Below, in pieces: positions 26,117 to 64,000 of a stretch of DNA of 64,000 nucleotides. The position numbers and the translations under genes were made by a program. Under the pieces are notes generated by a model, which saw nothing but the letters and a program-made list of their open reading frames with translations, did no database searches and was not told the origin of the DNA. Every line of letters begins with the position of its first letter. Position 1 is the stretch's first letter. Source of the DNA: Patescibacteria group bacterium (GTDB taxonomy: Bacteria; Patescibacteriota; Patescibacteriia; UBA10025; JAHIVO01); contig JBAZWB010000001.1 of the NCBI GenBank assembly GCA_041660605.1, positions 686,503 through 750,502 on the forward strand. The letters are read 5' to 3'.

Positions 26117-26184
26117 TTATTTACTAATATTTTTTTAAAATAGACTTAATTATCAGATAAAAAAATTATAATAAGTTTAAACTA

Positions 26185-26219: not shown

Positions 26220-26265
26220 ACTGAAAACAATATACAAAATTTAATTTCCTTAATATAAAATCGAA

Positions 26266-27573: not shown

Positions 27574-27586
27574 AATTCTTTAATTA

Positions 27587-29827: not shown

Positions 29828-29921
29828 TAATTTTTGTTATAATAAGAATTTCCAAAATTGTAATTTTAAATTGCTCAAAAATTCAACGTTTTGTTAACAT
29901 AAAAATATCATAATTTCGAGT

Positions 29922-45416: not shown

Positions 45417-45420
45417 AAAT

Positions 45421-46128: not shown

Positions 46129-46186
46129 ATATGTTTAAAATTATACCGAAAAATAAGCTTTTTAGCAACTGATATAAGACGCACGT

Positions 46187-48831: not shown

Positions 48832-50089
48832 TGTTTAATTTTTCAAGTGTAATTTTAATTTCCTCGCTTTTACCTCCACGCATAATCCGCATTGTCAGCA
48901 GATCCCCCGGGCTTTGCCGGCTGATAAAGTCATTTAAACTCATGTTCTGAGACAGCTCAGTGTTGTTAATCATTTGAATAATATCTCCGGTCTGCAAGCC
49001 GCCTTTTTGAGCCGGACTGTTTTTCTCCACACTGGGCCTGGCTTCTTCATCATCGCTGTAAATCACGGCGCCTTTGCTCAGATTGCTGCTTATTTCCACC
49101 GGTAAATTTACCACCTCAGCCAAATCAACATAATGTACACCCAGGTATGCTTGATTTATTTTTCCTTGAGCTAAAATTGATTCTATCTCTCCGGTAATCT
49201 GGCTGAAGGGAATGATATAATTTTGACTGCCGCCCGTCTGCACGATGCCTACCGCTTTGCTGTCGCCGGTAAAAGCCAGGGCATAATTAAAACTTGCCGG
49301 GATTTCATTCCCGATCAATATTTTTCTGTCCATTAATTCAGAAGATTTCACGATGTCCTCAATTTTATCCTGCGCATAGTAAATCGGTGCGACTATTTGT
49401 GCATTAAGAATTGAAGGGGTTTGGCTGAAAAAATGCGGCTGAAACAAAAACAAATCAGTCAAGCTCAGCAATTCGTCATTTTTTGAAAAAGCCACAGTAT
49501 CCAGCCCCTTAGCGTCAATTTTGATAAAAACAAAATTTGTCGCCGGGTCGGGAATAATTTCCTTAACCTCATATTTTACATTGCCCTGGACAAAAACTAC
49601 GTAATTTTCCGCCTGCGAATCACCAACAACCTGTTTGGTCGTTACCAAATATCCGTCGTTGGTTATAATAAAACCGTCACCCAGGCTGGCTGAATCAAGA
49701 TAAGCGCTTTGCAGTCCTTCTTCCTCACTTTTTATTTTAAATATCCTGGCGATAGTGGCGGAAATCTTCTGAGATTGCTGATTTACCTGAGCCACGTTAG
49801 CAGACTGGTTCTTACCGCTCCCGACAATAATAGAAGTTTGCGTTGTATTATTGAATATATTTAATTTATCAATTATTGGTATTGAAGAGCCGTAAGTAAA
49901 CAAAATAATTTGACTCAGGACACCCGCTAATAACCCGAAAAATATGGCCAGCAAGATGATGGCAATGGTACTGGTACGTTTTTTTTGGGGTTTTTCAATT
50001 TTATTTAACTCATCGGAGTATAAATTTTTCAGACTGTCCTCTTTTTTTATGCTGGATTTCGGGGAAGTTGGACTGATTTTTGATTTCAT
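48824..50089 (-). CDS. membrane-anchored trypsin-fold (HtrA-like) protein with a C-terminal PDZ domain; the catalytic triad is not clearly conserved
   Basis: 421 aa. N-terminal TM. C-terminal PDZ-like GAVIYSDDEEARPSVEKNSPAQKGGLQTGDIIQMINNTEL. GDS-containing segments (FTGDSKAVGIV) sit where HtrA has GNSGGPL, but no clear TNxHV His motif. Confidence 0.5.
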   Translation of the reverse strand: MKSKISPTSPKSSIKKEDSLKNLYSDELNKIEKPQKKRTSTIAIILLAIFFGLLAGVLSQIILFTYGSSIPIIDKLNIFNNTTQTSIIVGSGKNQSANVAQVNQQSQKISATIARIFKIKSEEEGLQSAYLDSASLGDGFIITNDGYLVTTKQVVGDSQAENYVVFVQGNVKYEVKEIIPDPATNFVFIKIDAKGLDTVAFSKNDELLSLTDLFLFQPHFFSQTPSILNAQIVAPIYYAQDKIEDIVKSSELMDRKILIGNEIPASFNYALAFTGDSKAVGIVQTGGSQNYIIPFSQITGEIESILAQGKINQAYLGVHYVDLAEVVNLPVEISSNLSKGAVIYSDDEEARPSVEKNSPAQKGGLQTGDIIQMINNTELSQNMSLNDFISRQSPGDLLTMRIMRGGKSEEIKITLEKLNNE

Positions 50090-50105
50090 ATTTATTTATT
50101 ATTTA

Positions 50106-50867
50106 TTAATACCATTTAGCGGTGGCCAGTAAAAAGACACCTAAAGTAGCGCTGATTATAATATAAGTTCTTATATTTTGCTTATTTAAATTATTCCTTA
50201 AAAAATCCCTGGATAAATTCATCACCAAATAATAAATTATTGCCAGGAATAGCCCATTAAATAGAAAACTTGTCGGTAAAAAACTAAAGACAAAATAAGA
50301 TTCAGACATCAGGACGCCAACTAATAAAATAAAAAATTTGCTTTTTCGCCACTCAATTTTATATGACCACAACGTACGCATGTACAAAAAACCGGAAATT
50401 ACAAATACTACGATACTAAATAACCACGATGGCCAGTTCATGAATAATGACAACCCAAAAAAGCTGGCATAAAATAAAAATAAAATGACCATGTTAATGT
50501 AGCCATATAGATTTTCCAGTGCATATGGCTGATAGCTTTTATCCTGATTTAAAAATTTAAATAAATTTTTCAATACCAAAAAAAATAATATGCCAATCAG
50601 AAAAATAAAAACCTGCTGAATAACTATCGAGTCAATCAGAGTAAAAAATACCTGACTGCCGGCAACTAAAAAAAGTGGCGTTGAAAGAAAATTCCAGAAT
50701 AATTTACTTTTGAATTTTCTGCCAGTCAGCGACCAAATTGTCAAAACTATTATACAAACGTTAATTGAAACGATATAATAAAACAACCCGTGGCTGACTG
50801 ACCAGATTTCAAAAAATATTACTACCAGCAAACTGCTTAAATATGGGAGGAATCGGTTAAAAAACAT
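50106..50867 (-). CDS. polytopic membrane protein of unknown function
   Basis: 253 aa, ~7 TM. No motif recognised. Confidence 0.45.
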   Translation of the reverse strand: MFFNRFLPYLSSLLVVIFFEIWSVSHGLFYYIVSINVCIIVLTIWSLTGRKFKSKLFWNFLSTPLFLVAGSQVFFTLIDSIVIQQVFIFLIGILFFLVLKNLFKFLNQDKSYQPYALENLYGYINMVILFLFYASFFGLSLFMNWPSWLFSIVVFVISGFLYMRTLWSYKIEWRKSKFFILLVGVLMSESYFVFSFLPTSFLFNGLFLAIIYYLVMNLSRDFLRNNLNKQNIRTYIIISATLGVFLLATAKWY

Positions 50868-50870
50868 AAT

Positions 50871-51452
50871 TTATTTTTTTTCAGTGGTCTCTTTAGCGCC
50901 GCCATCGTTCACCCGGCGTAAAATATTTATAATTTCTTCGGCCGTAATATTCTTATCATCCCTATTCTCCTTCTGCAACTCGATGATAGTCTGCTGGATC
51001 CTTTCCGGATCCTTGATCCCGCTCAGCTCAATATTTGCTTGCGCGCCGGCCGTCTGCACAATAATGCTGCCGTAATGGTATAATGTCTGCATTACCCCTT
51101 TAATTCTGAAACTGACGTCCTGAATCTTATTGTAAGTGGTCTCAGAAACCGTCCGGTCAAAAAAACCGCGCTGGTCTATGTCTATTATCCTTTGGTTGGT
51201 TATGATAAAAACGTTGAATGAATAAACAATAAAAGTTCTCAAGGCAATCATAATTCCAAACACTGATATTGCCGCAAATACGAGCAAACCCCAATTTGAC
51301 CATTTCAAGAGTGGATACAAAAAGAAAAAAGGTGCTATAATAAATATCATTGACAGTAATATCCTGCCGAGAAAAACCAGCCAGAATTTTCTGATAACCG
51401 CCACTGGCTCCTCATTTTCCTTAAGATTTTTAATTAGTTTATCTTCAAACAT
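50871..51452 (-). CDS. bacterial PH-domain (bPH_2/YdbS-like) membrane protein
   Basis: 193 aa. Two N-terminal TM helices, then ITNQRIIDIDQRGFFDRTVSETTYNKIQDVSF...GSIIVQTAG, typical of DUF304/bPH_2. Confidence 0.6.
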   Translation of the reverse strand: MFEDKLIKNLKENEEPVAVIRKFWLVFLGRILLSMIFIIAPFFFLYPLLKWSNWGLLVFAAISVFGIMIALRTFIVYSFNVFIITNQRIIDIDQRGFFDRTVSETTYNKIQDVSFRIKGVMQTLYHYGSIIVQTAGAQANIELSGIKDPERIQQTIIELQKENRDDKNITAEEIINILRRVNDGGAKETTEKK

Positions 51453-51550
51453 ATATATTTATGAAACGAAAGAAGGTTATAAGGGTAATCTGGATTGTCA
51501 TAGTAATCATCGGCGTTTTAAGCATGGTGTTCTTCACGGTCCTGCCTGCT

Positions 51551-53368
51551 TTATCTTTTTAATATCGCCAAAAAAGCTTCCTGGGGTATCTCTACTTTTC
51601 CCATCTGCTTCATCCTTTTTTTCCCTTTTTTCTGTTTTTCCAATAATTTTCTCTTCCGGGAAACGTCGCCGCCATATAATTTTGCGGTGACGTCTTTTCT
51701 TAGCGGAGGGATCCGGCTGGAAGCGATAATCTTGCTGCCGATGGCCGCCTGAATTTTGACTTCAAAGAGCTGGCGGGGTAAAACGTCCTTTAATTTTTCC
51801 ACGATTTTTCGTCCGACCTGGAAGGCCTCATCAGTGTAAACAATGGTTGCCAGCGATTCAGCCGGTTCTTGCGCAACCAATACATCGAGCCTGATGACAT
51901 CGCAAGTGCGATATTCTAAAAATTGATAATTCATTGAGGCGTAGCCGGCACTGACACTCTTCAGTTTATCATAAAAATCCACTAAAATACTAGCTAACGG
52001 AAGATTGTAGTGCATGACCGCTTTTTGTTCATCCAGATACTCGGTATTAATGAATTCTGCCCGTTTCTCCTGGGCTAAGGTCATAACATTCCCTAAATAA
52101 GCCGTTGGCGTCACAATATCCAGGGTCACCCAGGGCTCAGTGATTTTTTCTGTGTGCATTTTTTCCGGCAGTTGCAGAGGGCTAGTGATGGTAATTTCCC
52201 TATTTATGAACGACTTATCCTTGCGGCGATACGACTGAAAACCGGCTTCGCTTAAAATCACTTTATAGGCGACTGAAGGCGCTGTTACAATCAAATGCAT
52301 GTTGTACTCGCGCGTCAATCTCTCCTGAAATATATCCAGATGCAAAATCCCTAAAAAACCGCAGCGAAAACCAAAACCCAGAGCTTCTGAATGGTCTGGC
52401 TCATAGATAATTGAAGAATCATTAAGCGTGATTTTTTCCAGTGCGTCCCGCAAGTGTGAAAAATCATCACCCTCTTTGCAGTAAATTCCCGCAAAAACCA
52501 TGGGCTTCAAAATTTTGTAGCCTGGCAGGGGTTGGCTTGCCGGCCGCTTCAATAAGGTAATAGTATCGCCTACTCTGGAATGCAAAACCTCCTTCAACCC
52601 TGTCAACAAATAGCCAATTTCCCCAGCTGAAAGTTTATCAGTTTCCTCCAGCATGGGCTTAAAAATTCCCACACCCAGACACTCGGTGTCTTTCTTGCTG
52701 CCCATAATAAGCAGCTTATCGCCTTTTTTTACTTCGCCATTCATTACCCTGCCGAAAGCCACAACTCCCTTAAATTCGTCAAAAAATGAATCAAAAATCA
52801 AAATCTGTAAAGGATTTTCCAGTTCGCCTGTCGGCGGGGGTACTTTTTTAATTACTGCCTGTAAAATTACTTTGACATTTTCCCCGGTTTTAGCGGAAAC
52901 AGTCAGGATATCGCTTTTTGAAACACCCAATAATTTTACTAAATCCTGCGTAACTTCCTCGACTTTCGCATTTGGCAGATCAATTTTATTTATTACCGGA
53001 ATAATTACTAAATCCTGCTCCATGGCCAGATAAAGATTGGCTAGAGTCTGGGCTTCAATTCCCTGGGTAGCATCTACCAGCAAAATAGCTCCCTCAACTG
53101 CGGCCAATGAGCGGGAAACTTCATAAGAAAAATCAACATGCCCAGGAGTGTCAATCAGATTCAGAATATATCCCTGGTATAGCATGCGGACGGGCTGCAA
53201 TTTTATAGTAATCCCCCGCTCCCTTTCCAGCTCCATCTGATCCAGCAGCTGATCTCGCATATCGCGCTTATTGACGGTTTCCGTAACTTCTAAAAACCGA
53301 TCAGCCAATGTGGACTTGCCATGGTCAATATGCGCGATGATGCAAAAATTTCGAATTTTATTAAACAT
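51551..53368 (-). CDS. lepA: translation elongation factor 4
   Basis: 605 aa. NFCIIAHIDHGKSTLADR (G1), DTPGHVDF (G3) and the LepA-specific C-terminal domain. Confidence 0.95.
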   Translation of the reverse strand: MFNKIRNFCIIAHIDHGKSTLADRFLEVTETVNKRDMRDQLLDQMELERERGITIKLQPVRMLYQGYILNLIDTPGHVDFSYEVSRSLAAVEGAILLVDATQGIEAQTLANLYLAMEQDLVIIPVINKIDLPNAKVEEVTQDLVKLLGVSKSDILTVSAKTGENVKVILQAVIKKVPPPTGELENPLQILIFDSFFDEFKGVVAFGRVMNGEVKKGDKLLIMGSKKDTECLGVGIFKPMLEETDKLSAGEIGYLLTGLKEVLHSRVGDTITLLKRPASQPLPGYKILKPMVFAGIYCKEGDDFSHLRDALEKITLNDSSIIYEPDHSEALGFGFRCGFLGILHLDIFQERLTREYNMHLIVTAPSVAYKVILSEAGFQSYRRKDKSFINREITITSPLQLPEKMHTEKITEPWVTLDIVTPTAYLGNVMTLAQEKRAEFINTEYLDEQKAVMHYNLPLASILVDFYDKLKSVSAGYASMNYQFLEYRTCDVIRLDVLVAQEPAESLATIVYTDEAFQVGRKIVEKLKDVLPRQLFEVKIQAAIGSKIIASSRIPPLRKDVTAKLYGGDVSRKRKLLEKQKKGKKRMKQMGKVEIPQEAFLAILKR

Positions 53369-53490
53369 AGAAAATAACGATGAATTCTGCGAAACGGATT
53401 ATATCAGCGACGACTTGCCCCGCATACTGCGACACTGAGCGAAGTCGAAGAGGAGCTGTTGTGCGGGGTGCAAAAATTTCGAATTTTATT
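53341..53490. repeat. perfect 22-bp direct repeat (tgcaaaaatttcgaattttatt) at 53341-53362 and 53469-53490, flanking a 106-bp segment
   Basis: Copy 1 encodes lepA codons 3-9 (minus strand). Copy 2, followed by cat, encodes a second start-like MNKIRNFC and overlaps the murJ stop. The intervening segment contains the CCCCGCA...TGCGGGG inverted repeat. Confidence 0.7.
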
Positions 53491-55201
53491 CATTATTTTT
53501 TTCCGGTTGGATATTTTTTGATTTTTTGTTGTTAAATAATTGATGCCTGGCTTTTAACAGCCAATTTACTATTATTTTTACTTCTTCACATTTGAATAAT
53601 AAGGCTAAGACTAAATAGCTGCAGATGCCGAAAATGCCTGCTCCCAAGCCCTGGATAAAAATACCAACGAAAGTCTGCATATTTACTCCCAACGCCAAAA
53701 AATATTTCGCGGCAATAACCAGCGCACCCATCATGGCAGAGATTACTACTATTTTCAGGGTAGAGATGATTATCCTCTTATCGTCCAAATTGCCTACTTT
53801 TGAGCGCAGGAATACAAGCAGCAATATCATATTTATAAAACTGGAGATCGTAAAAGATAAAGCCAGGCCCATGACGCCCAAAAATCTGGTAAATATCAAA
53901 GCGCCGATGATATTCATCGCCACGCTGACCAGAGCGACTTTTACCGGAGTTTTTGTATCCTGCCAGGCATAAAAAGAACGCGCTAATAAGGGAATGACGC
54001 TCTGGGCAAATAATGATAAAGAAAATATGCCCAGCGTTTGTGCGGTCAGATAAGTATCATTCCAGTCAAAAGCGCCAGTGCCCAGGATTACCCTGACCAG
54101 CTGGGCGCGCAGTAAAAGTATCAGTACGGAAATGGGAATTACCACGAATAAAATACGGCGAAAACTTTCTGAAAAGTGCTCAATAAAAACTTGGTTCTTT
54201 TTCTGCACAAAGGCTTCACTTAAAAAAGGAAAAGAGGCCACGGCCACGGACACTCCGAATACATTGATCGGAAAGCTTTGCAGATTATTGGCAAATGTAA
54301 AAATTGCCACCGAACCGGCGGCCAACGTGGAACCAATGATAACGCTGATCAGCTGATCAACCTGCCCGACTGCCAGACCAAAAGTCCTCGGCAGCATCAG
54401 CTTGCCGATATTTCTGACACCGGCGTGCTTGGTATCAAAAACAAATTTGTAACGAAAGCCCAATTTAATTGCGCCTGGCAGCTGGATTAGCAAATGAAGC
54501 AGCGAGCCAAGAACTACGCCATAGGCTAAACCATAAATTCCGTAATATTTTACAAAAACACTGATGCCCAGGATTAATCCAATATTATACATGACCGGCG
54601 CAAAGGCAAAATTGATGTACCTTTTGAATGAATTCAATACTCCGGTTAAAATATTGCTGATGCCGAAAAATACGATGGAGACAAGCATGATTCTGGTCAT
54701 TTTTACGGTAACAATCTGCTTCTGCATATCAAAACCTGGGGCAATCAGCGGGATGATTTGCGGAGCGAAAATAAAAAACAGGATTCCGAAAAAAACGAGT
54801 CCTATGAGTAAAATATTCAGTAATGAATTTACCAGATACCAAACTTCATTTTTTGCTTCCGGATTTTCCTTGGCTTTTTGTATGTACTGAATGAATATCG
54901 GGATGAATGCGGCGGAAAGCGCACCCAATACCAGCACATTAAAAACTAAATCCGGTATTCGAAAGGCGGCATAATAAATATCCAGCTCATTGCCCGCCCC
55001 GAATTTTGCTGCCAGCAACCTGTCCCGTATCAATCCTAGGAATCTGCTGCCAACAGATGAAGCGGCTATAATAATTGCACCGCCAGTTAAGGTGGTGGTT
55101 AATTTAAACCATATTTTTGACCACATAATGTGAAAATTATACCAACTTTTTGCGAAAAAAACAAGCCCACTATATATAAAAAAGTGTGTCGTAAAATGCA
55201 T
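53486..55201 (-). CDS. murJ: lipid II flippase MurJ (MviN)
   Basis: 571 aa. SRFLGLIRDRLLAAKFGAGNELDIYYAAFRIPDLVFN is the canonical MurJ N-terminus, plus 14 TM. The true start may be the internal Met at ~55126 (MWSKIW...). Confidence 0.85.
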   Translation of the reverse strand: MHFTTHFFIYSGLVFFAKSWYNFHIMWSKIWFKLTTTLTGGAIIIAASSVGSRFLGLIRDRLLAAKFGAGNELDIYYAAFRIPDLVFNVLVLGALSAAFIPIFIQYIQKAKENPEAKNEVWYLVNSLLNILLIGLVFFGILFFIFAPQIIPLIAPGFDMQKQIVTVKMTRIMLVSIVFFGISNILTGVLNSFKRYINFAFAPVMYNIGLILGISVFVKYYGIYGLAYGVVLGSLLHLLIQLPGAIKLGFRYKFVFDTKHAGVRNIGKLMLPRTFGLAVGQVDQLISVIIGSTLAAGSVAIFTFANNLQSFPINVFGVSVAVASFPFLSEAFVQKKNQVFIEHFSESFRRILFVVIPISVLILLLRAQLVRVILGTGAFDWNDTYLTAQTLGIFSLSLFAQSVIPLLARSFYAWQDTKTPVKVALVSVAMNIIGALIFTRFLGVMGLALSFTISSFINMILLLVFLRSKVGNLDDKRIIISTLKIVVISAMMGALVIAAKYFLALGVNMQTFVGIFIQGLGAGIFGICSYLVLALLFKCEEVKIIVNWLLKARHQLFNNKKSKNIQPEKNNE

Positions 55202-55299
55202 TAATAATTATTTTCAAATATTAAATCATCGCGAACCTTTTAATGCTTAAAAGTAAGCTTCAACTAAAAAAAATAAATCAGCATATCATTTCAACTCAC

Positions 55300-55580
55300 A
55301 CTTGTCATGGCAGCTTATGCCTGTCACCTCGACCGAAACCCCCGCCAAAGGCGGGGGCGAGTGGAGAGGTCTCTGTTATACACTATTAACGTTGTTAATT
55401 CTAAACCGAGACTTCTCCGTTCCCCCGTCAGATGACGGGGTCAGTCGAAGTGACGGACGTTATTGGATCGCAAACCACACCTAATTAACCACTTACGATT
55501 GTCATGTCGACCGAGTCATCCCGCCTGTGGCGGGAGGACGAGTGGAGACATCTCGGTTATATACCCACTCACGCTTGCCA
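55300..55580 (+). other. GC-rich structured non-coding region. It carries two copies of a ~60-nt motif, (TGTCAyyTCGACCGA-hairpin-CGAGTGGAGAnnTCTCnGTTATA) at 55322-55380 and 55501-55563, plus a third GC hairpin at 55423-55440. This is a candidate ncRNA or repeat element.
   Basis: In copy 1 versus copy 2 the stems are conserved and the loops differ: CCCCCGCC-aaa-GGCGGGGG versus CCCGCC-tgt-GGCGGG, and GAGA-gg-TCTC versus GAGA-ca-TCTC. The strand is undetermined. The track ORFs here (55302..55484 and 55463..55669) look non-coding. Confidence 0.35.
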
Positions 55581-56075
55581 TTAGGTGTCCTTTTATAAAT
55601 AAAAATGCCGAGGCTACAGGTTATAAGGTCCCGGGCCGAGGTAAACATTATATTTTACGGAAAGGATAGGAAACCACTTTTTAAAAAACGGGTTTCCTAC
55701 AATAAAAAAGCTGCCGGCTAAATATATATGGTCATGCAAATTTGTAAGTAGAAATCCTGAATAAATCCAGGATTGAGGAGAGAGATTTTACCCTGCTGAA
55801 AAGCAGAGCCCTGCTTACCAACCTGATTTCCTTAAATATTATAACCAACAGCTTTTTTATGCCAACCTATAAACACATGGTTAAATAGGTTAGCACCGCT
55901 AGGATATTCCTTGTTTTTTAGTTTGTCAAGTCTATTACCCAATCATTTCCCTTTTTCACTGCACAAGATGGTCTTATGCCGCGGAAAAGGGAGGCAGGCG
56001 ACAAATTGCTTATAAGCGACTGTCTTATACCTGCCTTTTGAACAATACTATTGCTCGACAATGCCGAGATAGATA

Positions 56076-56582
56076 CTACGTTTGAGGTGAGAAAGTTTGA
56101 GGTAAGCACGTTTCACGTTTTAACGTTTCCGGAGAAATACGAACAATAAATACTTGAAAGTTTTCATCGTCAAATAATAGATTAACATTTTCAAGCATAT
56201 CACTCGAAATTCCGGCTAAAAGCCAACTATCAAGCCAATACTCGCGAAACTTGAATTCCACAGTCGGAACAATCTTCGTGCTGTCCCGAACCATCCGAAT
56301 CTTTTTTTCGGGAATTAGCGTAACCACATAAACATCTGGTTTCGGTGACCACGTGAAGCGAATGCTCTTTTCGGTAGATACCTTCCCAGAGGCACTCCCA
56401 CATCCGAAAAAGAATCCTCCTTCAAATGAACCGTTGATAGAACTTTCACTGGGAAAAACGCGCAAATAATGTTCACCGAAAACTCCAGTAGGTTCAAGCA
56501 ATTCTCGATGAGTTGCACAACCAGTGATATTGATAGCCGCCATAATCACTATCAGCAATGCACACGCGTACCATTTCTTCAT
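56076..56582 (-). CDS. lipoprotein of unknown function
   Basis: 168 aa. Signal peptide plus lipobox (LIVIMAAINITGC). GGAGAA RBS 6 nt upstream. G+C-richer than the surrounding genome. Confidence 0.55.
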   Translation of the reverse strand: MKKWYACALLIVIMAAINITGCATHRELLEPTGVFGEHYLRVFPSESSINGSFEGGFFFGCGSASGKVSTEKSIRFTWSPKPDVYVVTLIPEKKIRMVRDSTKIVPTVEFKFREYWLDSWLLAGISSDMLENVNLLFDDENFQVFIVRISPETLKRETCLPQTFSPQT

Positions 56583-56636
56583 GATATTCTCCTGAAATAG
56601 GGTTAATGTTATGAACTATTTTTCTTTTATCTCAAT
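56583..56636 (-). promoter_or_regulatory. sigma70-like promoter (copy 1 of a duplicated element): TTGAGA-17-ATAACA
   Basis: Minus-strand read: GATTGAGATAAAAGAAAAATAGTTCATAACAT..AGGAGAATATC-ATG. 20 of these nt are identical to copy 2 at 56885-56952. Confidence 0.35.
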
Positions 56637-56795
56637 CCGCCGTAGGTGTACTGGGATAAAAGAAAAGTTTCTCTTTTTCAACCCACGATAATTGATTTTC
56701 ATGGTCTGAAAAAGTGATGGGAGCCGAGAGAATAAAATGTTCATGAAGAACAAATGTTCTTTTGGCTCCCGAATCATCACTTTCGTCGACTGGTG

Positions 56796-56879
56796 TCAGC
56801 CGTTAATTAAGGCACAGATCATGGCGATGTTGCACGCCACTGATACTGTCCACAGCGCTGCCAGAGCCCGCTTACTCAT
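56796..56879 (-). CDS. 27-aa hydrophobic small ORF (MSKRALAALWTVSVACNIAMICALING)
   Basis: Found manually; below the track cut-off. Preceded by GGAGGGACAAGGAG RBS and by promoter copy 2, with the same spacing as the lipoprotein gene. Confidence 0.3.
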   Translation of the reverse strand: MSKRALAALWTVSVACNIAMICALING

Positions 56880-56884
56880 GTTGA

Positions 56885-56952
56885 CTCCTTGTCCCTCCTG
56901 GGACGGTTAAGTGATGATTGATTATTTATGTACCATTTTTCTTTTATCTCAA
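56885..56952 (-). promoter_or_regulatory. sigma70-like promoter (copy 2): TTGAGA-17-ATAAAT, upstream of the 27-aa sORF
   Basis: Minus-strand read: GATTGAGATAAAAGAAAAATGGTACATAAAT. The shared 20-mer atttttcttttatctcaatc is on the plus strand at 56618 and 56932. Confidence 0.35.
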
Positions 56953-57042
56953 TCGAGTATAACTCCATACCCGGCTGGCATAAAGGCAGGAAATAAATTT
57001 CCCTTTTTCAGTTCTGAAAAAAATTTTCAATCCTGGAAAAGA

Positions 57043-57077
57043 GTGAGAAGAATATTACTGTTGTAATATCTTCTCAC
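57043..57077 (-). terminator. rho-independent terminator downstream of the FHA gene
   Basis: 15-bp stem GTGAGAAGA(A)TATTAC / GTAATATCTTCTCAC with one bulge and a TGTT loop. Followed on the minus strand by TCTTTTCC. Confidence 0.4.
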
Positions 57078-57258
57078 ATAGCTGTTCAGTTCCACGGAGC
57101 CACCGTGATCGGCATTTCGATCCATGATAAGGGCTACCGTATTTGACCCTTGCGATTACTTAGAGCATCCTGCCTCCACCACAGGTTCATTATATGTCCA
57201 GGTCACTACGTGTCCTGGGGTTAATTCGACTTCTTTTTATCAGTCGACGGCCGCCCAA

Positions 57259-57552
57259 TTAAGCTGCAACCGCTATCTGATAATTGGCGATCTCAATCAC
57301 GTTGCCAACAGCCAGAACGTGATCAATGATCTGCTTATCATTCACAAAAGTACCATTTTTTGAATTCTGATCACGTATCATGTAATCAGTACCATTCCAG
57401 ACGATGACCGCATGCAGTCGGCTGACACCGCGCTGACTGAGCACCAGCCCGCACGTATCTAATCGGCCTACCGAGAACTCCTCATTAGGCCCTAGCGTAG
57501 GCAGCACAACCTTATCTAAGGTTATGCCACCGAGGTTTACAACAAGTCGCAT
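57259..57552 (-). CDS. FHA-domain protein (stand-alone forkhead-associated domain)
   Basis: The start was refined to the Met preceded by GGAGG (MRLVVNLGG...). FHA signature: SVGRLDTCGLVLSQRGVSRLHAVIVWNGTDYMIRDQNSKNGTFVND. Confidence 0.65.
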   Translation of the reverse strand: MRLVVNLGGITLDKVVLPTLGPNEEFSVGRLDTCGLVLSQRGVSRLHAVIVWNGTDYMIRDQNSKNGTFVNDKQIIDHVLAVGNVIEIANYQIAVAA

Positions 57553-57633
57553 GTTGCCTCCAAATATTCTTGGTTTAAATCTTGATTTAATCTCCTGAAT
57601 GTTCAAACTGCAGCAGATTGTGATTGGGGAATA

Positions 57634-57882
57634 TTAAGCCAATTCCATCTCCGTTCTAATACATCCCAGTATCAGGTAAAAGTACATGACACCGAAGATG
57701 ACATAGAGAGATGGCACAGCTATTAACCATACCAGTGTTAATGATCCGGCCGCGACATAGTAAATCCCATCTTGATAAAGGGAATATTTAAACGCATACC
57801 AGATTCCCTCACCATACTTATGGTATCCTACTGCCAGCCCAATAACGGCAAATAGCAGGATGTGCGGTAGAATGAAGTTCAT
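57634..57882 (-). CDS. small 2-TM membrane protein upstream of the FHA gene
   Basis: The start was refined to MNFILPHILLF..., which has GGAGG 6 nt upstream. Two hydrophobic helices. 82 aa. Confidence 0.45.
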   Translation of the reverse strand: MNFILPHILLFAVIGLAVGYHKYGEGIWYAFKYSLYQDGIYYVAAGSLTLVWLIAVPSLYVIFGVMYFYLILGCIRTEMELA

Positions 57883-59131
57883 TTGAAACCTCCGTAAACA
57901 AGTCAATGATCTAGCAATTTTCTCTTTTTTCAGCAGCCAATGGTACTTGACCATTACCCGCTGGAAAAAAGAGGCGGAAAATTATTAATATATTTACTCC
58001 TAAAAACAATTAACTCATTTTTTCAAAGAAAGAGGAAGAGGCTAAGTGGCACGGTTTTGACTACATGGAAGCAGTCACCGGACCGGGTATCAATGGCAGT
58101 TAACTCTTAGTTCGCACCAAGCGCTATTGCCATTATATGATATCCTTTTGAATAGCCCTCCTTTTCTCTCTTTGAAAATTTTTAATTTACATTACTTTCT
58201 TTTAATCATCACGAACCTTGGGTTATACCGCGCCCGCTTCGAATGCGAAGCAGTCGGGCGGGATGTCCTAAACTAAATGATGTTTACTGACAATTTAAAA
58301 TAATTTATGCCGAGTCATCGACTTCACGTCGGGACGAGGTATTCCTTTACGGAAGGATGAGTGATGAGAAGGAAACCCTTGGTTGCCTTCTCATAAACTT
58401 CCCTTATTCAGCAGACAATAACACGGGGCTATTGCCCGCTGGAGAAGGGAGGACAGCTACTGAGTTGCAACTGTCCCTTGGTGTGCGGCTAAAAGCAAGT
58501 AACGAGTAAGATGAGGTGATAAAGATCCATTTTTGGCGCGGGAAGAAGGATTTGCACCCGCCTCTGAGCTCTAAACGAGTTCAGTCCGTATTGTTAATCA
58601 GTAGTGTATACTGATCACGCAACGGCTTTACAGCCATTCTCTCCTCCGGTATGAATAACCGCGGTGTAAGTAGCTTCCCGCATTTTTCTAAGAAAGGAGA
58701 AGGAGGTTAGTAGGTTCGCCTTTGGCCATATAAATATGGCCGACGGACCAGATATCAGAATTAGTAATATTCTAGTCGAAACCAGAAACATGCTAATCCT
58801 ATTGATATCTCTTAACTAATCCCCCCTTTTCCTTTCTCCAAAATTTTCAAGGTAGAAACTGGATAAACAAAAAACGGACTTTTCCTTGAGAAGAGCTCGT
58901 TTTTTGCTTGAGTTATTGGTTGTTGTAATAATAAACCTTATCAAAACCACCACCCCTGCCACATGATCTTTCTTAAGATTTATTATTTGTTACTCTCTCC
59001 TCAAAGAGTATTTTTGCTGATTTAAAATGAACAAGAAATATTGAATTTAACTGATAATAATATACCCCCAGACATTTTCTGTCAAGGGGAGATATCCACA
59101 TTATATTAATTTTTGGCTAAAGTTAGACTAA

Positions 59132-61483
59132 TTACTTCTTTATTAACACACCAAAATATTTATCTGTAACTAAATCCGTGATAAACGACAGATTCTGACC
59201 GTCAGCGCTGACGGTATCAGGACACCAGGCGATCTTATATTTTTCAGGCAAAATTACTGTCCCGGCGTAAAAATCATTCAATACACCAGGCTGTTTCTGA
59301 ATCAGCAGGCTGTAATCATCGGTATTATTAAATAAACCTCCTGGCAAAACGGTAAAAGGCAGCGTATAGGTAATGCTGGCTTCAGCCGCCTGCCCAGGAT
59401 CAACCGTCATCCAGTTGCCAAAAACCGTCTTGCCAAATTCCGTAGTCAATCGGGTATTATTTGCTTCATCCATGATAGCGTCTTTTTCAATTGATTCCAG
59501 GTCCGAATCAGGCGTGGCGTCTGTATCCGGCAGCTTAAAGCGAAAAGAAGGGATATCGGTAAAACCCTTGGCTTCAATTAATTTACTGCCATAGGGGACA
59601 TAAAACCTGACGTATGAAACATTGGCCTGGCCTTCCCAGCGATCACGCGGATTTCCATTATGCACTCTCTTCAATGTAACAGTATCGGTGACCGTGCCAT
59701 CGTCTCCGATCCTAATGTCATGTTTAATGAATTGATCGACTACCTGATCAGTTTTCCCTCCACCGATATTAGTGCTGACAACGTTCAGATAATCCTTGGC
59801 AGTGCTTTTTACTCCCCCGTCCCAGTTTAAATCAGTGATTTTTTTCTGCAGTTCTTCATCATTGAAATAGAGCAGAAAATCCTTGGAATTTATGGAATCG
59901 CCAAAAGCTGATACTACCTTTATTATATTATCCTTATCCGTCTGGAATATCTTGTCTAGTAGTATTGGCAATAAATCACCGATGAACTTTTTCGGCTTAT
60001 TTTCTTCCCTGTCATACTGAACTTCCGCCCAGTATTGGGCTTCACGCACGAAATTGTCCGAGGTGACCGTCACTCCGTAATCTTTCATTTCTATCGGACC
60101 AGTTATGTCCAGCAATTTTTCAACGACTGTCGGCGTCAGTGAAATCACGCCGTCAACAGTCGCCCTGCCCGCTCTTTCGTAGAACCATTCAATCTTCCTG
60201 GCTGACGTAGGAAAATCAACGAACCAATTGGCATCCTGAATATTCCAGTGCGGATTTACCAGCCACAATGGCTTCGGAGCGACAATCTTCTCCTGGAGCT
60301 GCCCGGCAATATCATACACTCCCCCTCCGGGGACTTCCAGATTGGTAATTTTACCCTGATTGATGTCCACTAACGCAATCGAGCCGATAAATCCGCCGGT
60401 CGGCCTCAACTCCCGGTTATTCTGAAAAATCAGCAGATAACGCATTGATTTATTATGGCCCAGCACTTCCAGCATCATATCTGCCAGAGATACATAGCTG
60501 TCTGAGCTTTTTTGAATGGCTGGCAGCAACGTCTGAATCTTGCTAATTTCCGGCTGATACTCCTCGGGGATATCTTTTATCCTGACGTTCTTGATACTTT
60601 CAGCAGCCGCGCTGATTTCCTGCTGCAGAGGGGCTATTTTTTCTCGCACTAATAGTAAATATTGTATTAATGATGATTCATTATCTCCGCCCAGAACGTT
60701 GAGGTCGATATTGGAGATATTGCCTAATAGCTCGGTTATTACCGAACCGGCCTGCGATAATTGGCTGCCGGCAGCCAACAGGTATTGCGCGCTCTTTGCT
60801 TTGTTAGGGACGATCTTTGTCAGCTGTATAACGAACGAACCGACTTCATCCAGCTGCTGCTGCGCTGAAACAAAATAATTCGTTGCCTGACTGAACTGCG
60901 CCTGCGCTGTTTCGTAATCAGATGAGGTTATTGAATTGCCGGCTGCCATCAGGCTCTTATAGGCTTCCGTCGAAATGCCAAGCACCTTGCCTTTAGCGGC
61001 ACTGGCGCTCTTGTAAAATCCAAATAAAAAAATCGGCAGGACAATGATAACGCAAGCCATGATGAAATAAGCCAGCTTCCTGTTCCAGCCCGGCGCCAGT
61101 TGGAATTTCAATAATTCCAGTTTTTCTTCCGTCACTTTATTCTCTCTTTTTGGTTTTTTTTGCACCGGCGGGGGTATGGGTGCGGGTTTTTCTTCCGGTC
61201 TGGGCAGCTGGCTGGCTGGCGGCTGAAAACTCCTGGAAACAATCACTTTTTCCGCTGCTTCACGCCTGCCGGTATCTTGCTTTTCAGTTTTTTTAGGCAG
61301 TTTGAAATTCCCGAAAAATTTCTGAAAAGATAATCCTTTTTTTTCTTTTATTTCCTCGGGTTTTTCAGTTTCAGCAAATTTGCGCAAATCAATGATATTG
61401 GCTTTCGGGACATGCAGATTTTTTGGGTTTGAATTATTTCCCAGAATATTGAATTTATTCGTGTTTATATTATGCCGTTTCAT
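59132..61483 (-). CDS. DUF4012-domain protein. It has an N-terminal cytoplasmic region, a Pro-rich linker and one TM helix, followed by a large extracytoplasmic domain.
   Basis: 783 aa. RYLLIFQNNRELRPTGGFIGSIALVD and the surrounding region match the DUF4012 signature common in CPR/Gram-positive genomes. Linker PPASQLPRPEEKPAPIPPPVQKKPKRE. TM helix AYFIMACVIIVLPIFLFGFY. Confidence 0.7.
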   Translation of the reverse strand: MKRHNINTNKFNILGNNSNPKNLHVPKANIIDLRKFAETEKPEEIKEKKGLSFQKFFGNFKLPKKTEKQDTGRREAAEKVIVSRSFQPPASQLPRPEEKPAPIPPPVQKKPKRENKVTEEKLELLKFQLAPGWNRKLAYFIMACVIIVLPIFLFGFYKSASAAKGKVLGISTEAYKSLMAAGNSITSSDYETAQAQFSQATNYFVSAQQQLDEVGSFVIQLTKIVPNKAKSAQYLLAAGSQLSQAGSVITELLGNISNIDLNVLGGDNESSLIQYLLLVREKIAPLQQEISAAAESIKNVRIKDIPEEYQPEISKIQTLLPAIQKSSDSYVSLADMMLEVLGHNKSMRYLLIFQNNRELRPTGGFIGSIALVDINQGKITNLEVPGGGVYDIAGQLQEKIVAPKPLWLVNPHWNIQDANWFVDFPTSARKIEWFYERAGRATVDGVISLTPTVVEKLLDITGPIEMKDYGVTVTSDNFVREAQYWAEVQYDREENKPKKFIGDLLPILLDKIFQTDKDNIIKVVSAFGDSINSKDFLLYFNDEELQKKITDLNWDGGVKSTAKDYLNVVSTNIGGGKTDQVVDQFIKHDIRIGDDGTVTDTVTLKRVHNGNPRDRWEGQANVSYVRFYVPYGSKLIEAKGFTDIPSFRFKLPDTDATPDSDLESIEKDAIMDEANNTRLTTEFGKTVFGNWMTVDPGQAAEASITYTLPFTVLPGGLFNNTDDYSLLIQKQPGVLNDFYAGTVILPEKYKIAWCPDTVSADGQNLSFITDLVTDKYFGVLIKK

Positions 61484-61524
61484 CCCTTTTTGTTAATAAA
61501 ACTTAATAACTGCGATTTAACGTA

Positions 61525-62643
61525 TTATATTGAATTATACAATTCCAGGGTAGATTTGGCCAGCCTGTCCCAGCTGTACTCTTTTGATTTTTTAATGCCC
61601 AATTTACGCAATTTTTCTATTAAGCTTTCGCTATTTAATAACTTACTGATCACTTCCGCCATGTTATCAACGTTATACGGGTCAAAATATACCGCTGCCT
61701 TGCCCAAAATTTCCGGCAGGCATGAATTATTGCTGGCCGCCACTGGCAGTCCATAAGAACACGCTTCCAGGGCCGGCAGGCCGAATCCTTCGCAAAATGA
61801 AGGAAAAGCGTAAATTTTAGCGTTTTTATATAAGCCCGGCAGGTCTTCATCGGTGACAAACCCGGTAAAAATTACTTTTTGCTCCAAGTCATTAAAAGCC
61901 ACTTCTCTTTTAATTTTTTTATAAAAATAATCGTCCTTGCCTACTAGTACCAGATAATATTCCTGATTTTTCTCCAATATTTTTTTAAAAGCCCGCAGCA
62001 GCCCCTCAATATTTTTATGGGGGTAAACATTGCCGACAAATAAAATAAATGGTTTTTTAATCCTGTATTTGCTCAGAACAAACTCTTCGCTCCTGAAATT
62101 CTCTGACGGCGGTTCAACGGCTTCATGAGTAATCAATATTTTATCTGCGGTAATATTAAAATATTTCATCAGCTCCGATTTTGTATATTGGGAAACAGTG
62201 ATTATTTTTCTGGCTTTCTTGACCGCGCTTCTGATGATAACTTTATAGCCGAACTGCTTAATTTTATATAATATTGGTCCGAGAGTAGTCGCTCTTTGCG
62301 TAGGATATTTGGTGATAATCAGATCATGAATAGTCACCACGAAACGGCCAAAATACAATAAGGGCACGTTAAAATGAGGGAAGTGCATGACATCCAGATG
62401 GTACGACCAGATCTTCAATGGTAAAAAAATCTGCTCTGACAGACTATACCAGCGGTAGTCAGCCAGTACCTTCCTGAAATTGCTTTTAGCCGACTGAAAA
62501 GATGCCCAATTTTCTTTGCGCAAAAAAATATAATACTCATTTTTCTCATCCAGGTTTTCCAGATGAGTTATCAGTTTTTCGGTGTACCGCCCGAGTCCTT
62601 TGCCGAATGATCCGTAAAAACGGGCGTCGATGCCAATCCTCAT
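61525..62643 (-). CDS. GT4 glycosyltransferase
   Basis: 372 aa. MRIGIDARFYGSFGKGLGRYT... and PSFCEGFGLPALEACSYGLPVAASNNSCLPEILG (E-x7-E). Confidence 0.8.
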   Translation of the reverse strand: MRIGIDARFYGSFGKGLGRYTEKLITHLENLDEKNEYYIFLRKENWASFQSAKSNFRKVLADYRWYSLSEQIFLPLKIWSYHLDVMHFPHFNVPLLYFGRFVVTIHDLIITKYPTQRATTLGPILYKIKQFGYKVIIRSAVKKARKIITVSQYTKSELMKYFNITADKILITHEAVEPPSENFRSEEFVLSKYRIKKPFILFVGNVYPHKNIEGLLRAFKKILEKNQEYYLVLVGKDDYFYKKIKREVAFNDLEQKVIFTGFVTDEDLPGLYKNAKIYAFPSFCEGFGLPALEACSYGLPVAASNNSCLPEILGKAAVYFDPYNVDNMAEVISKLLNSESLIEKLRKLGIKKSKEYSWDRLAKSTLELYNSI

Positions 62644-62645
62644 AA

Positions 62646-63749
62646 TTATTTAGAAGTTAAAATTTCCAATGTTTTTTCTGCGGTATTTTCCCAGGTAAAC
62701 TGCCTGACCCATTCTTTCGCTCTTTTAGCGATTTTTTCGCGAAAAATATCATTGGTCATAACCTGCTTGATCGCGGCAACGATTTCCTGGGGATTATAGG
62801 GATCTATCAATATGGCCGTACCGCCGCTGATAGCCGGCAATGAAGTGCCGTGGCTGGTAATAACTGCAGTACCGGCGGCCATGGCTTCCAGCACCGGCAA
62901 TCCGAATCCCTCATAATATGAAGGGTAAATGAATGCCTTAGCCGTTTTATACAGCGCCTTTTTTTCCTGATCGCTGACGTAGCCGATAATTTTTTCGGTG
63001 CCTCGGCAAATTTTAACGGTTTTTTTGTCCACTTTACCGGCAATAACCAAATCATATTCCGTCTGGCCCGCAATTTTCCAGGCCTGCAGAAGTCCTTCAA
63101 TATTTTTCCTTTTTTCAACGGTGGCCAGATATAGAATGAACGGTTTATTTAAATTAAATTTATTCTTTAATTCTTCGCATTTTATTTGATCGACTTCATC
63201 GCTGAAATCCATATCAACACCGAGGGGTATGACGGAAATTTTTTTTGGAGATATTTGATAACGCGTTTCCAGATCTGATTTCGTACTTGATGATACGGCG
63301 ATAATTTTATCAGCCCGGCGCAAGGCTTCCTCAGGTCCGATAAATTTATGCCAATAATAAGCTTTTCGAGTATAAAATGAGCTTTGGAAAAATGAAAGGT
63401 CATGGACTGTCAGCACCAGACGGCATTTGGCTGAAAAATGCCAAAAATTAAGATTAGGCATAAAAAACAAATCCACTCCTCCTAACAGAGAATCCAGTTC
63501 AGGTTTCTTTAGAAAAAACAATGAGGAGTTGAATGCTTTACTCGGCCAGTGGAATTCCTTCAAAACCGCATTTTTTTCATTGAACAATGACTTGTATCTG
63601 TCATCAATTTTCTTCAGCGAATTATAAAAAAACAGATAAGTATTGGCCTTATCTCGCATCAGTAAATGACGAATGATTTGATAGGTATATTCAGTAACCC
63701 CTGACGGGAAGGGTTCAACGAAAGTTCTTATATCAATGCCAATTCGCAT
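62646..63749 (-). CDS. GT4 glycosyltransferase; paralog of 61525..62643
   Basis: 367 aa. MRIGIDIRTF... and PSYYEGFGLPVLEAMAAGTAVITSHGTSLPAISGG (E-x7-E). Confidence 0.8.
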   Translation of the reverse strand: MRIGIDIRTFVEPFPSGVTEYTYQIIRHLLMRDKANTYLFFYNSLKKIDDRYKSLFNEKNAVLKEFHWPSKAFNSSLFFLKKPELDSLLGGVDLFFMPNLNFWHFSAKCRLVLTVHDLSFFQSSFYTRKAYYWHKFIGPEEALRRADKIIAVSSSTKSDLETRYQISPKKISVIPLGVDMDFSDEVDQIKCEELKNKFNLNKPFILYLATVEKRKNIEGLLQAWKIAGQTEYDLVIAGKVDKKTVKICRGTEKIIGYVSDQEKKALYKTAKAFIYPSYYEGFGLPVLEAMAAGTAVITSHGTSLPAISGGTAILIDPYNPQEIVAAIKQVMTNDIFREKIAKRAKEWVRQFTWENTAEKTLEILTSK

Positions 63750-63750
63750 G

Positions 63751-64000
63751 TTATACTTGTCGGCTCTCTATGCCTTCTTCTTTATGCCAATATTCCGCTA
63801 AATATGCAATGGCCAGGCTGATAATCAAGCCGGCGATAAAGCCCAGGACAACATTCAGCCAGATATTCGGCTTGTCTTCGACAATTACCGGTTTTGATCC
63901 GACTACCTCGAATACTGATTTATTGTCTGAGGTTTGATTTGAAGCTGCAGCTTTTGTTTCTACGATACTGATTATTGCCTGACCGATTTTTTCAGCTGTA
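63751..64000 (-). CDS. C-terminal part of a Wzz/CapA-like polysaccharide chain-length-determinant-type membrane protein; partial, running off the right edge
   Basis: Manual translation ends ...NVVLGFIAGLIISLAIAYLAEYWHKEEGIESRQV*. This is the typical C-terminal TM helix plus short basic/acidic tail of Wzz/YveK-type proteins. The stop is 1 nt from the downstream GT4 start. Confidence 0.45.
   Translation of the reverse strand, partial: TAEKIGQAIISIVETKAAASNQTSDNKSVFEVVGSKPVIVEDKPNIWLNVVLGFIAGLIISLAIAYLAEYWHKEEGIESRQV

Follow-up and report, generated by a model that had tools for sequence, protein, structure and literature searches.

The window analysed in this study is a 64,000-nt stretch of a Patescibacteria genome (contig JBAZWB010000001.1), the source of which appears to lie near Candidatus Kerfeldbacteria, judging from the relatives of its MurJ protein. 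Between the start codon of murJ (55126; this start matches database copy P0001, 546 aa, 100% identical) and the stop codon of a DUF4012 gene (59132) lies a gap that an earlier note had described as a gene-poor segment without long open reading frames (ORFs) and as a candidate horizontally acquired island or non-coding RNA cluster. The segment was gene-poor as described, with a coding fraction of 0.26 compared with 0.95 for the remainder of the window, and three ORFs of at least 80 aa were found in it. The RNA cluster was borne out as well: the RNA elements of the gap, which were conserved and showed covariation, belonged to at least four families, among them RNA-D, RNA-A, B, and RNA-C. On the minus strand, which is the gene strand, the order was RNA-D, RNA-A copy 1, an 18-aa small ORF (sORF) of uncertain coding status, a B hairpin, an E-like module, RNA-A copy 2, a B hairpin, an 82-aa membrane protein gene, an FHA gene, a B hairpin, a 27-aa sORF, a B hairpin, a lipoprotein gene, a B hairpin, and RNA-C, followed by a stable fold (55600–55290), the murJ promoter, and murJ (Table 1). 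Two conserved RNA genes, each behind a sigma-70-type promoter-like site, bracket the locus, and the small genes between RNA-D and RNA-C are strain-specific and mostly encode membrane, secreted, or lipoproteins. The locus is very probably a variable gene array framed by new structured RNAs that form a conserved cluster.

Table 1. Features between the DUF4012 gene and murJ, listed in the direction of the gene strand (window positions; RBS, ribosome binding site).
Feature	Position	Strand	Basis
RNA-D promoter, TTGACA-17 nt-TATTAT	59057..59085	-	11/12 matches, top promoter-like site in the window scan
RNA-D, about 185 nt, leader or small RNA at the DUF4012 end	58865..59050	-	Alignments A10 and A11; 5' end inferred from the promoter
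D box ACUCUUUGAGGAGAGAGU (18 nt), core GAGGAGAGAG	58992..59009	-	10-nt core invariant in 10/10 genomes
RNA-D intrinsic terminator (predicted), A tract-hairpin-U run	58865..58909	-	−16.5 kcal/mol
RNA-A copy 1	58675..58850	-	Model R1, 164.8 bits, E = 1e-38
Possible sORF, 18 aa, MAVKPLRDQYTLLINNTD	58581..58637	-	Sequence reading; RBS GGAGGAGAGA, 37 nt past RNA-A copy 1
B hairpin, strict CCAGCG...UGCUGAA core	58392..58457	-	Model R2, 67.8 bits minus vs 30.4 plus; pattern core 58407–58442
E-like module	58290..58400	-	GAGAAGG/CCUUCUC hairpin, UUCC..GGAA hairpin, then CUCGUCC-hairpin-GAUGACUCGG
RNA-A copy 2, GCGA tetraloop on P2b	58010..58185	-	Model R1, 149.4 bits, E = 7e-35
B hairpin, between RNA-A copy 2 and the 82-aa gene	57914..57979	-	Model R2, 66.5 bits minus vs 26.3 plus
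Membrane protein gene, 82 aa	57634..57882	-	ORF and hydropathy, three hydrophobic segments; RBS GGAGG
FHA-domain-only protein gene, 97 aa	57259..57552	-	Pfam FHA, 1.3e-17; RBS GGAGG
Degenerate B, past the FHA gene; hairpin 57056–57090 ahead	56992..57051	-	Model R2, 31.6 bits, E = 3e-6; alignment A6
Hydrophobic sORF, 27 aa, MSKRALAALWTVSVACNIAMICALING	56796..56879	-	Read from sequence; RBS AAGGAG
Degenerate B, between the sORF and the lipoprotein gene	56662..56724	-	Model R2, 19.1 bits, E = 0.02, weak; alignment A6
Lipoprotein gene, 168 aa	56076..56582	-	ORF and lipobox ITGC; RBS AGGAGA
Degenerate B, past the lipoprotein gene; hairpin 56003–56045 ahead	55940..55999	-	Model R2, 27.8 bits, E = 4e-5
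RNA-C promoter, TTGACA-17 nt-TATCCT	55901..55929	-	Promoter scan, 10/12 matches
RNA-C, about 190 nt	55704..55894	-	5' hairpin, long-range closing helix, variable inner hairpin
C box AAAAUCUCUCUCCUCAA (invariant box CUCUCUCCUC)	55773..55789	-	Core of 12 nt, exactly reverse-complementary to the D box
Very stable multi-branched fold	55290..55600		Folding z = −7.1 and −7.2 on the two strands
murJ extended −10 promoter TTGGTATAAT	55136..55145	-	Sequence reading; 9 nt to ATG (55126)

The locus was compared with those of 12 relatives (L001–L003, L013–L020, and L024), with MurJ 56–75% identical and a genome G+C content of 31–52%; model and box searches covered the 64 kb of this genome and ~20 kb per relative. 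A gap of 2.2 to more than 10 kb separated DUF4012 from murJ in 12/12 relatives (in L020, the DUF4012 end lay outside the sequence examined), and ordered maps of ten loci gave one order: D box, RNA-A, genes with B hairpins (and further RNA-A copies in some loci), and C box. When the gaps were compared by BLASTN, non-coding blocks and multi-copy repeats proved to be what they had in common. The RNA elements lie outside Rfam, since no Rfam 15 family was recognized: zero matches were obtained in the 64-kb window at the gathering score, only chance matches to eukaryotic snoRNAs and miRNAs (best E 0.33) in 55000–59300 at E up to 10, and nothing in the gaps of six relatives. Full-text literature searches returned no description of the locus. 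Hammerhead and other ribozyme cores and retron msr/msd elements were considered and rejected, with no core motifs, no Rfam matches, and no reverse transcriptase.

At the DUF4012 end, the CTTGAC and the −10 region of the RNA-D promoter (CTTGACA, 17 nt, TATKAT) were conserved in 10/10 genomes. In the RNA-D alignments (9–10 genomes), the promoter, the D box, and the terminator were conserved, and the sequence between them was variable, with insertions and deletions that were not multiples of three. The D-box core occurred once per locus on the gene strand in 9/10 loci with the DUF4012 end covered, and two additional exact copies were present in L014. No start codon was found at a usable distance behind the D box. 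A conserved ORF behind either the D box or the GGAGG of RNA-A was rejected on the same ground, as no start codon was conserved at such a distance, and none was found inside RNA-A.

The 3' end of RNA-D had the layout of an intrinsic terminator, a 12-bp stem with an internal hairpin followed by UUUUUUGUUU. Folding of this region gave −12.7 to −23.3 kcal/mol in 8/9 genomes (−6.1 kcal/mol in L017), and compensatory changes were observed in seven pairs. The 5' half of the terminator (GAGCUCUYCUCAAAGG) was complementary to the D box, with a duplex energy of −12.9 to −17.0 kcal/mol in 8/9 genomes. This complementarity would explain the close match of the terminator (97% identity over 35 nt) between genomes that each encode a MurJ ~70% identical to that of the window. 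The first RNA-A began 0–20 nt past the terminator in five genomes (14 nt for copy 1 of the window). This spacing leaves no room for a separate promoter; therefore, the first RNA-A would be made only by read-through.

At the murJ end, RNA-C was present in 11/11 aligned loci and was recognized by eye in L024. Its promoter (TTGACA and TAYNNT) was kept in 6/8 aligned genomes. The closing helix, AAGCUGUUGG / CCGGCAGCUU (consensus AAGCUGYCGR / YCGGCAGCUUUUU), spans ~135 nt and ends in a U run; it comprised 16–18 pairs, of which 6–8 were compensatory, and the 5' hairpin covaried as well. The box (consensus AAAWCUCUCUCCUC) was invariant and is followed by the variable hairpin. A 10-mer of the C box, CTCTCTCCTC, was found on the gene strand 135–702 nt before murJ (typically 155–335 nt) in 11/11 loci, and L001 carried a second exact C-box copy. 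The murJ gene has its own TTGNTATAAT promoter ~10 nt before the ATG, so RNA-C is not the murJ leader. The same TTGNTATAAT was present at this position in L003, L015, and L016, and TCGGTATAAT in L014; the placement of the promoter implies a predicted murJ mRNA that is leaderless or nearly so.

The cores of the D box (UUGAGGAGAGAG) and the C box (CUCUCUCCUCAA) were exact reverse complements, and the duplex of the two boxes had an energy of −19.8 to −23.8 kcal/mol in 8/8 genomes. In L024, the D box was changed to GGGGAGAGAG and still paired with the C box through a G·U pair. The flanking DNA, about 250 kb in total, contained neither box, except for one match within the murJ gene of L006 that is ascribed to chance. 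RNAduplex applied to the whole lengths of RNA-D and RNA-C was tried and was uninformative (z −0.4 to −2.5), as shuffled RNA forms long duplexes too.

RNA-A is ~172 nt long and is closed by the helix P1 (~23 bp), which is GA-rich in its 5' strand and CU-rich in its 3' strand and contains a GGAGG:CCUYC core that was kept in all copies. Its arms are P2-P2a-P2b, which ends in a tetraloop of either the GNRA or the UNCG type, and P3, which carries an AAR bulge. In copy 1, the long P1 contained a GGGGGG:CCUUCU/CCUCC core and led to a three-way junction with a UUCG-capped P2b. Folding gave −48.3 kcal/mol and 23 compensatory pairs on the gene strand, compared with −23.5 kcal/mol on the opposite strand. 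The covariance model found 21 copies in 11 loci and two weaker matches in L024, and may have overlooked weak copies. All copies were on the gene strand within the gap; none was found in the remaining 64-kb window or in more distant genomes with the same model, and none further in the gap of the window with a five-sequence model and filters off. In the 21-sequence alignment, which was fitted to the model, 89.8% of the cells were paired, compared with 40–44% when the partners were slid, and double changes occurred in 53/57 pairs.

The copies of RNA-A differed in age and setting. The two copies of the window were ~60% identical to each other and each was closer to copies in other genomes (copy 2 was nearest to copy a of L019, 75%), and they are old paralogues. 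The four copies of L003 were 94–100% identical. Eleven of 20 copies lay directly ahead of a gene, most with a Shine-Dalgarno sequence and a start codon 12–37 nt downstream. In general, the position of RNA-A was either at such a distance from a start codon or just past a terminator or a B element. A strict RNA-A pattern scanned against metagenome and viral collections matched two contigs only, which duplicated L002 and L003, and zero viral contigs; either the family is rare or the pattern was too strict.

The position ahead of genes would suit a riboswitch, or a leader that senses a ligand or a protein, in which an opened P1 would free the CCUCC as an anti-Shine-Dalgarno sequence to block the GGAGG of the gene. 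The conserved three-way junction with its strong covariation and the P1 core present in every copy would fit such a role. However, the junctions and internal loops were poorly conserved, with no obvious ligand pocket, and a P1 of ~23 bp is too stable for a switch helix. Many copies were followed by a B hairpin rather than a gene, some variants consisted of P1 only, and the genes that would be regulated had no common function. This role of RNA-A is therefore considered improbable.

The B element, present in five copies in the window, folds into a hairpin of 24 bp capped by a 5-nt loop; pyrimidines prevail in its 5' strand and purines in its 3' strand. The CAGCG/UGCUG core was invariant and included an invariant G·U pair. 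Covariation was observed in 16/24 pairs, and 88.8% of the cells were paired, compared with 40–52% when slid. The strong matches scored much higher on the gene strand, and the G·U pairs (the invariant one and frequent ones in the upper stem) were compatible with this strand only. All model matches were inside gaps, except for one borderline match in L007 (E = 0.09). B lay directly after a gene in 24/36 copies, typically 30–80 nt past the stop codon; many copies were 21–58 nt ahead of the next start codon, and seven adjoined an RNA-A copy. Several copies had a terminator-like arrangement ahead of them, a short G+C-rich hairpin and then a U-rich tract; the copy with the strict core in the window was preceded by such a hairpin and tract.

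Repeated palindromes of this kind may also be selfish or otherwise DNA-level elements, with A and B as miniature inverted-repeat transposable elements, as repeats like the repetitive extragenic palindromic (REP) or Correia elements, or as attC-like sites, with the D and C boxes as an inverted repeat for a recombinase or DNA-binding protein, and with any RNA structure incidental. REP sequences and bacterial interspersed mosaic elements (BIMEs) of enterobacteria and the Correia repeat-enclosed elements of Neisseria are repeated palindromic intercistronic hairpins, and Correia elements resemble RNA-A in size and layout. RNA-A has 23-bp terminal inverted repeats around ~115 nt, the L003 copies look recently duplicated, and the D and C boxes were without observed covariation. 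Like REP, BIME, and Correia elements, A and B are repeated, strongly palindromic, 60–170 nt long, and placed between genes of one transcription unit, and their helices of 23–24 bp are long enough for double-strand-specific RNases and for stabilization of the upstream mRNA. Unlike those elements, A and B occurred at a single locus within the searched DNA (64 kb here, ~20 kb per relative), in one orientation, and were orthologous over genomes of 31–52% G+C. They also carried compensatory changes and strand-specific G·U pairs, and RNA-A had a three-way-junction interior.

The sequence changes themselves argued for RNA. G·U pairs were tolerated on the gene strand only, in the invariant position of B and at conserved positions of RNA-A. 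The half-sites of B differed consistently (CAGCG versus CAGCA) because of the strand-specific G·U pair, which a DNA palindrome bound by a dimer would not need. Furthermore, the gene strand scored far above the other strand, the exchange of GNRA and UNCG tetraloops is a feature of RNA, and the internal helices covaried as well as the ends.

The units of an ORF and a palindrome recall integron cassette arrays, which likewise consist of short, same-strand, promoter-poor orphan ORFs, each followed by a structured imperfect palindrome whose shape is conserved more than its sequence, with hypervariable cassette content. In contrast to integrons, the genes called within 10 kb of the gap in eight relatives included no intI recombinase, and there was no attI; the B core, CAGCG/UGCUG, contained no RYYYAAC or GTTRRRY sequence; its asymmetric pairs fit a coding-strand RNA; and the array has fixed RNA genes at both ends. 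Overall, an origin of these elements in DNA-level repeats was judged unlikely.

The genes between the RNA elements were mostly orphans. The earlier note had listed a lipoprotein, a 27-aa sORF, an FHA-only protein, and a two-transmembrane (TM) protein, each with a strong RBS, and all four genes with such sites are present; the TM count differs, as a crude hydropathy window scan marked three hydrophobic segments in the last protein. The start codons were corrected to 57552 for the FHA protein and 57882 for the small membrane protein. A word-seeded search of 5.8 billion proteins, limited in sensitivity, returned for the lipoprotein only the protein itself, which is provisionally regarded as an orphan ORF (ORFan). 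The 29 nt upstream of the 27-aa sORF were duplicated upstream of the lipoprotein gene with 93% identity (repeat D8). The 82-aa membrane protein had no match in Pfam, NCBIfam, or PADLOC, and the only match of the small proteins of the gap in PADLOC and NCBIfam was a generic, sub-threshold one of the FHA protein to FHA models.

In the relatives, the gaps contained short ORFs without firm Pfam matches, nearly all on one strand, and most encoded predicted TM segments, signal peptides, or lipoboxes. These ORFs showed no homology between genomes, with the exception of a weak family of ~150 aa with four TM segments, which followed the last RNA-A in L001, L014, L015, and L016 and was not among the gap ORFs of the window in the comparison. 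No FHA gene was seen in the gene tables of the relatives' gaps. The array of L020 (MurJ 58%) was more than 10 kb long. All but one of its 17 small ORFs were on the gene strand, and the 17 included three paralogous membrane proteins of ~145–151 aa with 4–6 TM segments; the models matched one RNA-A copy and zero B copies in it.

Several of the products are hydrophobic peptides 27–82 aa long, the 27-aa sORF and the 82-aa membrane protein among them, and pairing of GA-rich with CU-rich sequences dominates the locus. A cluster resembling type I toxin–antitoxin systems, with hydrophobic peptide toxins, mRNAs with sequestered Shine-Dalgarno sequences, and the CU-rich RNA-C as a shared antitoxin that masks the RBSs, was considered for this reason, and 9 nt in the RBS of the 18-aa sORF are indeed complementary to the C box. 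However, many products were ordinary-looking lipoproteins or secreted proteins of 100–370 aa, and one was an FHA protein. RNA-C was neither overlapping with nor antisense to a cassette gene, and PADLOC and NCBIfam searches gave no match to a known toxin family. Such a system would suit the smallest hydrophobic ORFs only, and for the locus it is very improbable.

The genomic setting was examined with regard to the island half of the earlier proposal, that is, a horizontally acquired genomic island that was imported and kept a foreign composition. The sharp shift in base composition after the murJ start that had been reported by eye was not found. The G+C content was 42.1% for 55202–58900, 41.4% for 45000–55200, and 42.0% for 59132–64000, and the 1-kb profile was 0.41–0.43 over 55–59 kb, with the flanks alike. 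The segment was at the 88th percentile of 3.7-kb windows by G+C, because a low-G+C block at ~17–30 kb depresses the mean of the window (37.3%). The effect that the eye had caught is narrower: the non-coding DNA of the gap had a G+C content of 40.4%, compared with 31.7% for the pooled remaining intergenic DNA of the window. The tetranucleotide distance of the segment was raised (0.28 versus about 0.16), which is consistent with non-coding DNA and not with foreign origin. Of 11 gaps measured, 7 were within 2 points of G+C of their flanks and 4 were off by 3–5 points in either direction.

The numerous stable inverted repeats that had been reported were confirmed, for example in 55285–55600 (folding z = −7 on either strand), and the gap was rich in repeats, with 11 pairs of 16-mers with at most one mismatch compared with 0.1 in shuffles. 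The 15/16 repeat of a 16-mer suggested as a sign of boundaries does exist, at 55224–55239 and 58204–58219, but marks no boundary; such a pair arose in 8% of the gap shuffles, which makes it statistically marginal, and the repeat had no occurrence in any relative. A chimeric assembly was excluded by identical copies in other assemblies: a 4.4-kb stretch comprising the gap and 200 nt of either flank was 100% identical in a second assembly (ENA), and the murJ-proximal 3.3 kb of the gap was 100% identical in two Logan assemblies from other sequencing runs. Both of the latter, independent short-read assemblies (L022 and L023), ended at window position ~58241, just upstream of RNA-A copy 2; strain variation, or a repeat located towards the RNA-D end of the locus, may account for the shared break.

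The segment was found at the same site in every Kerfeldbacteria relative examined. The two flanking genes abutted only in a more distant relative, CP060223.1 (MurJ 54%), in which 14 nt separated the DUF4012 stop codon from the murJ start codon. This absence, together with a gene content that was wholly different between relatives, the ORFan lipoprotein, and the raised tetranucleotide distance, is what would speak for import. On the other side, the G+C content matched the flanks here and in most relatives, and the framework of D, A, B, and C was orthologous and appears to be vertically inherited over genomes of 31–52% G+C. ARAGORN found no tRNA or tmRNA in the 64-kb window or in the gaps of the 12 relatives. 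No integrase, transposase, or recombinase family was found within 10 kb of the gap in the gene tables of eight relatives, on which this negative result rests, the flanking ORFs of the window itself having been only partly scanned against Pfam. The gene tables of the relatives listed only envelope and housekeeping genes within this distance, and BLAST against phage and plasmid records gave no similarity to the segment. The island explanation for the locus as a whole is thereby largely refuted and was given a low probability; the element of it that survives is a lineage-specific locus whose coding content turns over almost completely. The locus is lineage-specific, at a fixed position, and hypervariable in coding content, and is not a compositionally foreign island.

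A tRNA-like 3' end, GGUUCGACUCCUC...ACCAGCCA, was seen at about 8853–8970 in L024, whose 2.2-kb gap is nearly free of ORFs. It pairs with GGCUGGU ~118 nt upstream and was not called by ARAGORN.

Between the cell-envelope genes DUF4012 and murJ of Kerfeldbacteria, the locus is probably, although by no means surely, a lineage-specific, RNA-organized expression locus for variable envelope proteins. Its operation can be outlined from the predicted structures. Transcription would begin at the RNA-D promoter, and RNA-D would serve as the leader and attenuator of the array. If the D box bound the 5' half of the RNA-D terminator, transcription could continue through RNA-A into the gene array. RNA-C forms the stronger predicted duplex with the D box and, by binding it, would leave the terminator free to form and switch the array off, so that negative control would come from the distal end. 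The long RNA-A P1 and B helices (~23–24 bp) may act as double-strand-specific modules for processing and stability, for which an RNase III-type enzyme is the obvious candidate, and their cleavage would convert the read-through transcript into individually stable small mRNAs. In addition, cassettes could be gained and lost through the homology between the repeated modules, and the gene content would be hypervariable for this reason. This specific mechanism of attenuation and processing is put forward tentatively. Similarly tentative is the reading in which the locus would be an undescribed RNA-framed cassette array, each fast-evolving envelope-protein ORF lying between a 5' RNA-A and a 3' or intercistronic B, and the whole gated by the complementary D and C RNAs encoded at its ends.

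Several observations weigh against this interpretation. A second promoter-like site was found within RNA-C (TTGGCA-16 nt-TATAAT, 55838–55865, minus strand, 11/12 matches), partly conserved in the relatives; if used, it would give a shorter RNA-C without the 5' strand of the closing helix. The D box can form a local hairpin of 7 bp, a competing structure that was favoured by RNAalifold. The D and C boxes never varied together; the pairing is for this reason backed by co-invariance and one G·U-compatible change, with no compensatory changes, and the boxes may instead act at the DNA level as a 12-bp inverted repeat. For RNA-A, fitting the alignment to the model leans the covariation towards structure, 9/20 copies were not directly ahead of a gene, and some copies in L019 and L024 retained only P1 around a small interior. 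Few unpaired nucleotides of RNA-A were conserved. Finally, start sites, termination, and read-through were inferred from consensus motifs, and the promoters of Patescibacteria are poorly characterized.

Taken singly, the parts are reminiscent of an attenuator leader, of a small RNA (sRNA) with a CU-rich seed and its decoy, and of intercistronic hairpins, all of known kinds; the RNA families are new. The resemblance to sRNA-controlled attenuators includes the RNA-D promoter, the box that pairs with the 5' half of the terminator, the genes directly downstream, and a second RNA of the same locus that carries a better complement to the D box. Unlike in those systems, no Rfam family was matched, the partner RNA-C is encoded at the far end of the array, and the alternative pairing is deduced here from energies. 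As in pairs of an sRNA and a sponge, an invariant CU-rich stretch is present in RNA-C and an invariant GA-rich one, which resembles a Shine-Dalgarno sequence but is not followed by an ORF, in RNA-D, and the two pair over at least 12 contiguous bases. However, there was no homology to a described sRNA, and both RNAs are tied to one hypervariable locus. The processing stems of rRNA operons are also formed by complementary sequences kilobases apart that flank a transcribed unit, and RNA-A P1 and B would suit RNase III. They differ in that each of the two boxes (D and C) belongs to a unit that has a separate promoter and a terminator-like end, that only 12–14 bp are complementary, and that the enclosed sequence is protein-coding and variable. 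We know of no counterpart in which two end-encoded RNAs with complementary boxes surround an array of units composed of a 5' module, an ORF, and a 3' module.

Patescibacteria, also known as candidate phyla radiation (CPR) bacteria, are ultra-small and mostly uncultured and have been described as living attached to host cells; to our knowledge, almost nothing is known about their RNA-based regulation. The locus contains four new, strongly supported RNA families inside a cluster of cell-wall and glycosylation genes, and the envelope-protein genes to which all four are linked form the most variable set observed in these loci. The two RNAs with an invariant complementary box, 3–6 kb apart (more in L020), constitute a clear and testable prediction of an RNA–RNA interaction, in an organism in which genetic manipulation is not yet possible. 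If the proposed array were real, the RNA modules would combine post-transcriptional control, processing sites, and homology for shuffling, and the array would correspond, at the RNA level, to an integron that serves the surface proteins of an episymbiotic bacterium. If the modularity of RNA-A, gene, and B were general, it would explain how variable surface proteins are expressed and exchanged, and the covariance models could be used to annotate such loci in metagenomes.

Two further structured regions were found in the gap of the window. The E-like module was 83% identical over 72 nt to positions 4789–4860 of L019, and on sequence reading its motif appeared to recur at 55605–55640 and 55322–55564. 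The module, which consists of CUCGKCC, a hairpin, and GAUGACUCGG with two small hairpins ahead, was also located at 55605–55645 and at 4789–4882 and 9440–9478 of L019, and is common to this genome and L019 and, in part, L002. The very stable fold next to murJ contained three copies (+, −, +) of a CCCGCC-hairpin/GAGUGGAGA motif, which occurred nowhere else in the 64 kb and had no counterpart in the relatives.

The FHA-only gene lies 2 kb upstream of murJ (53486–55126). The mycobacterial FHA protein FhaA reportedly binds phosphorylated MurJ/MviN. The true compositional outlier of the window was the region 17000–30000, with a G+C content of 25–31% compared with ~40% elsewhere and a tetranucleotide distance of up to 0.33; it was densely coding, with its ORFs on the same strand.

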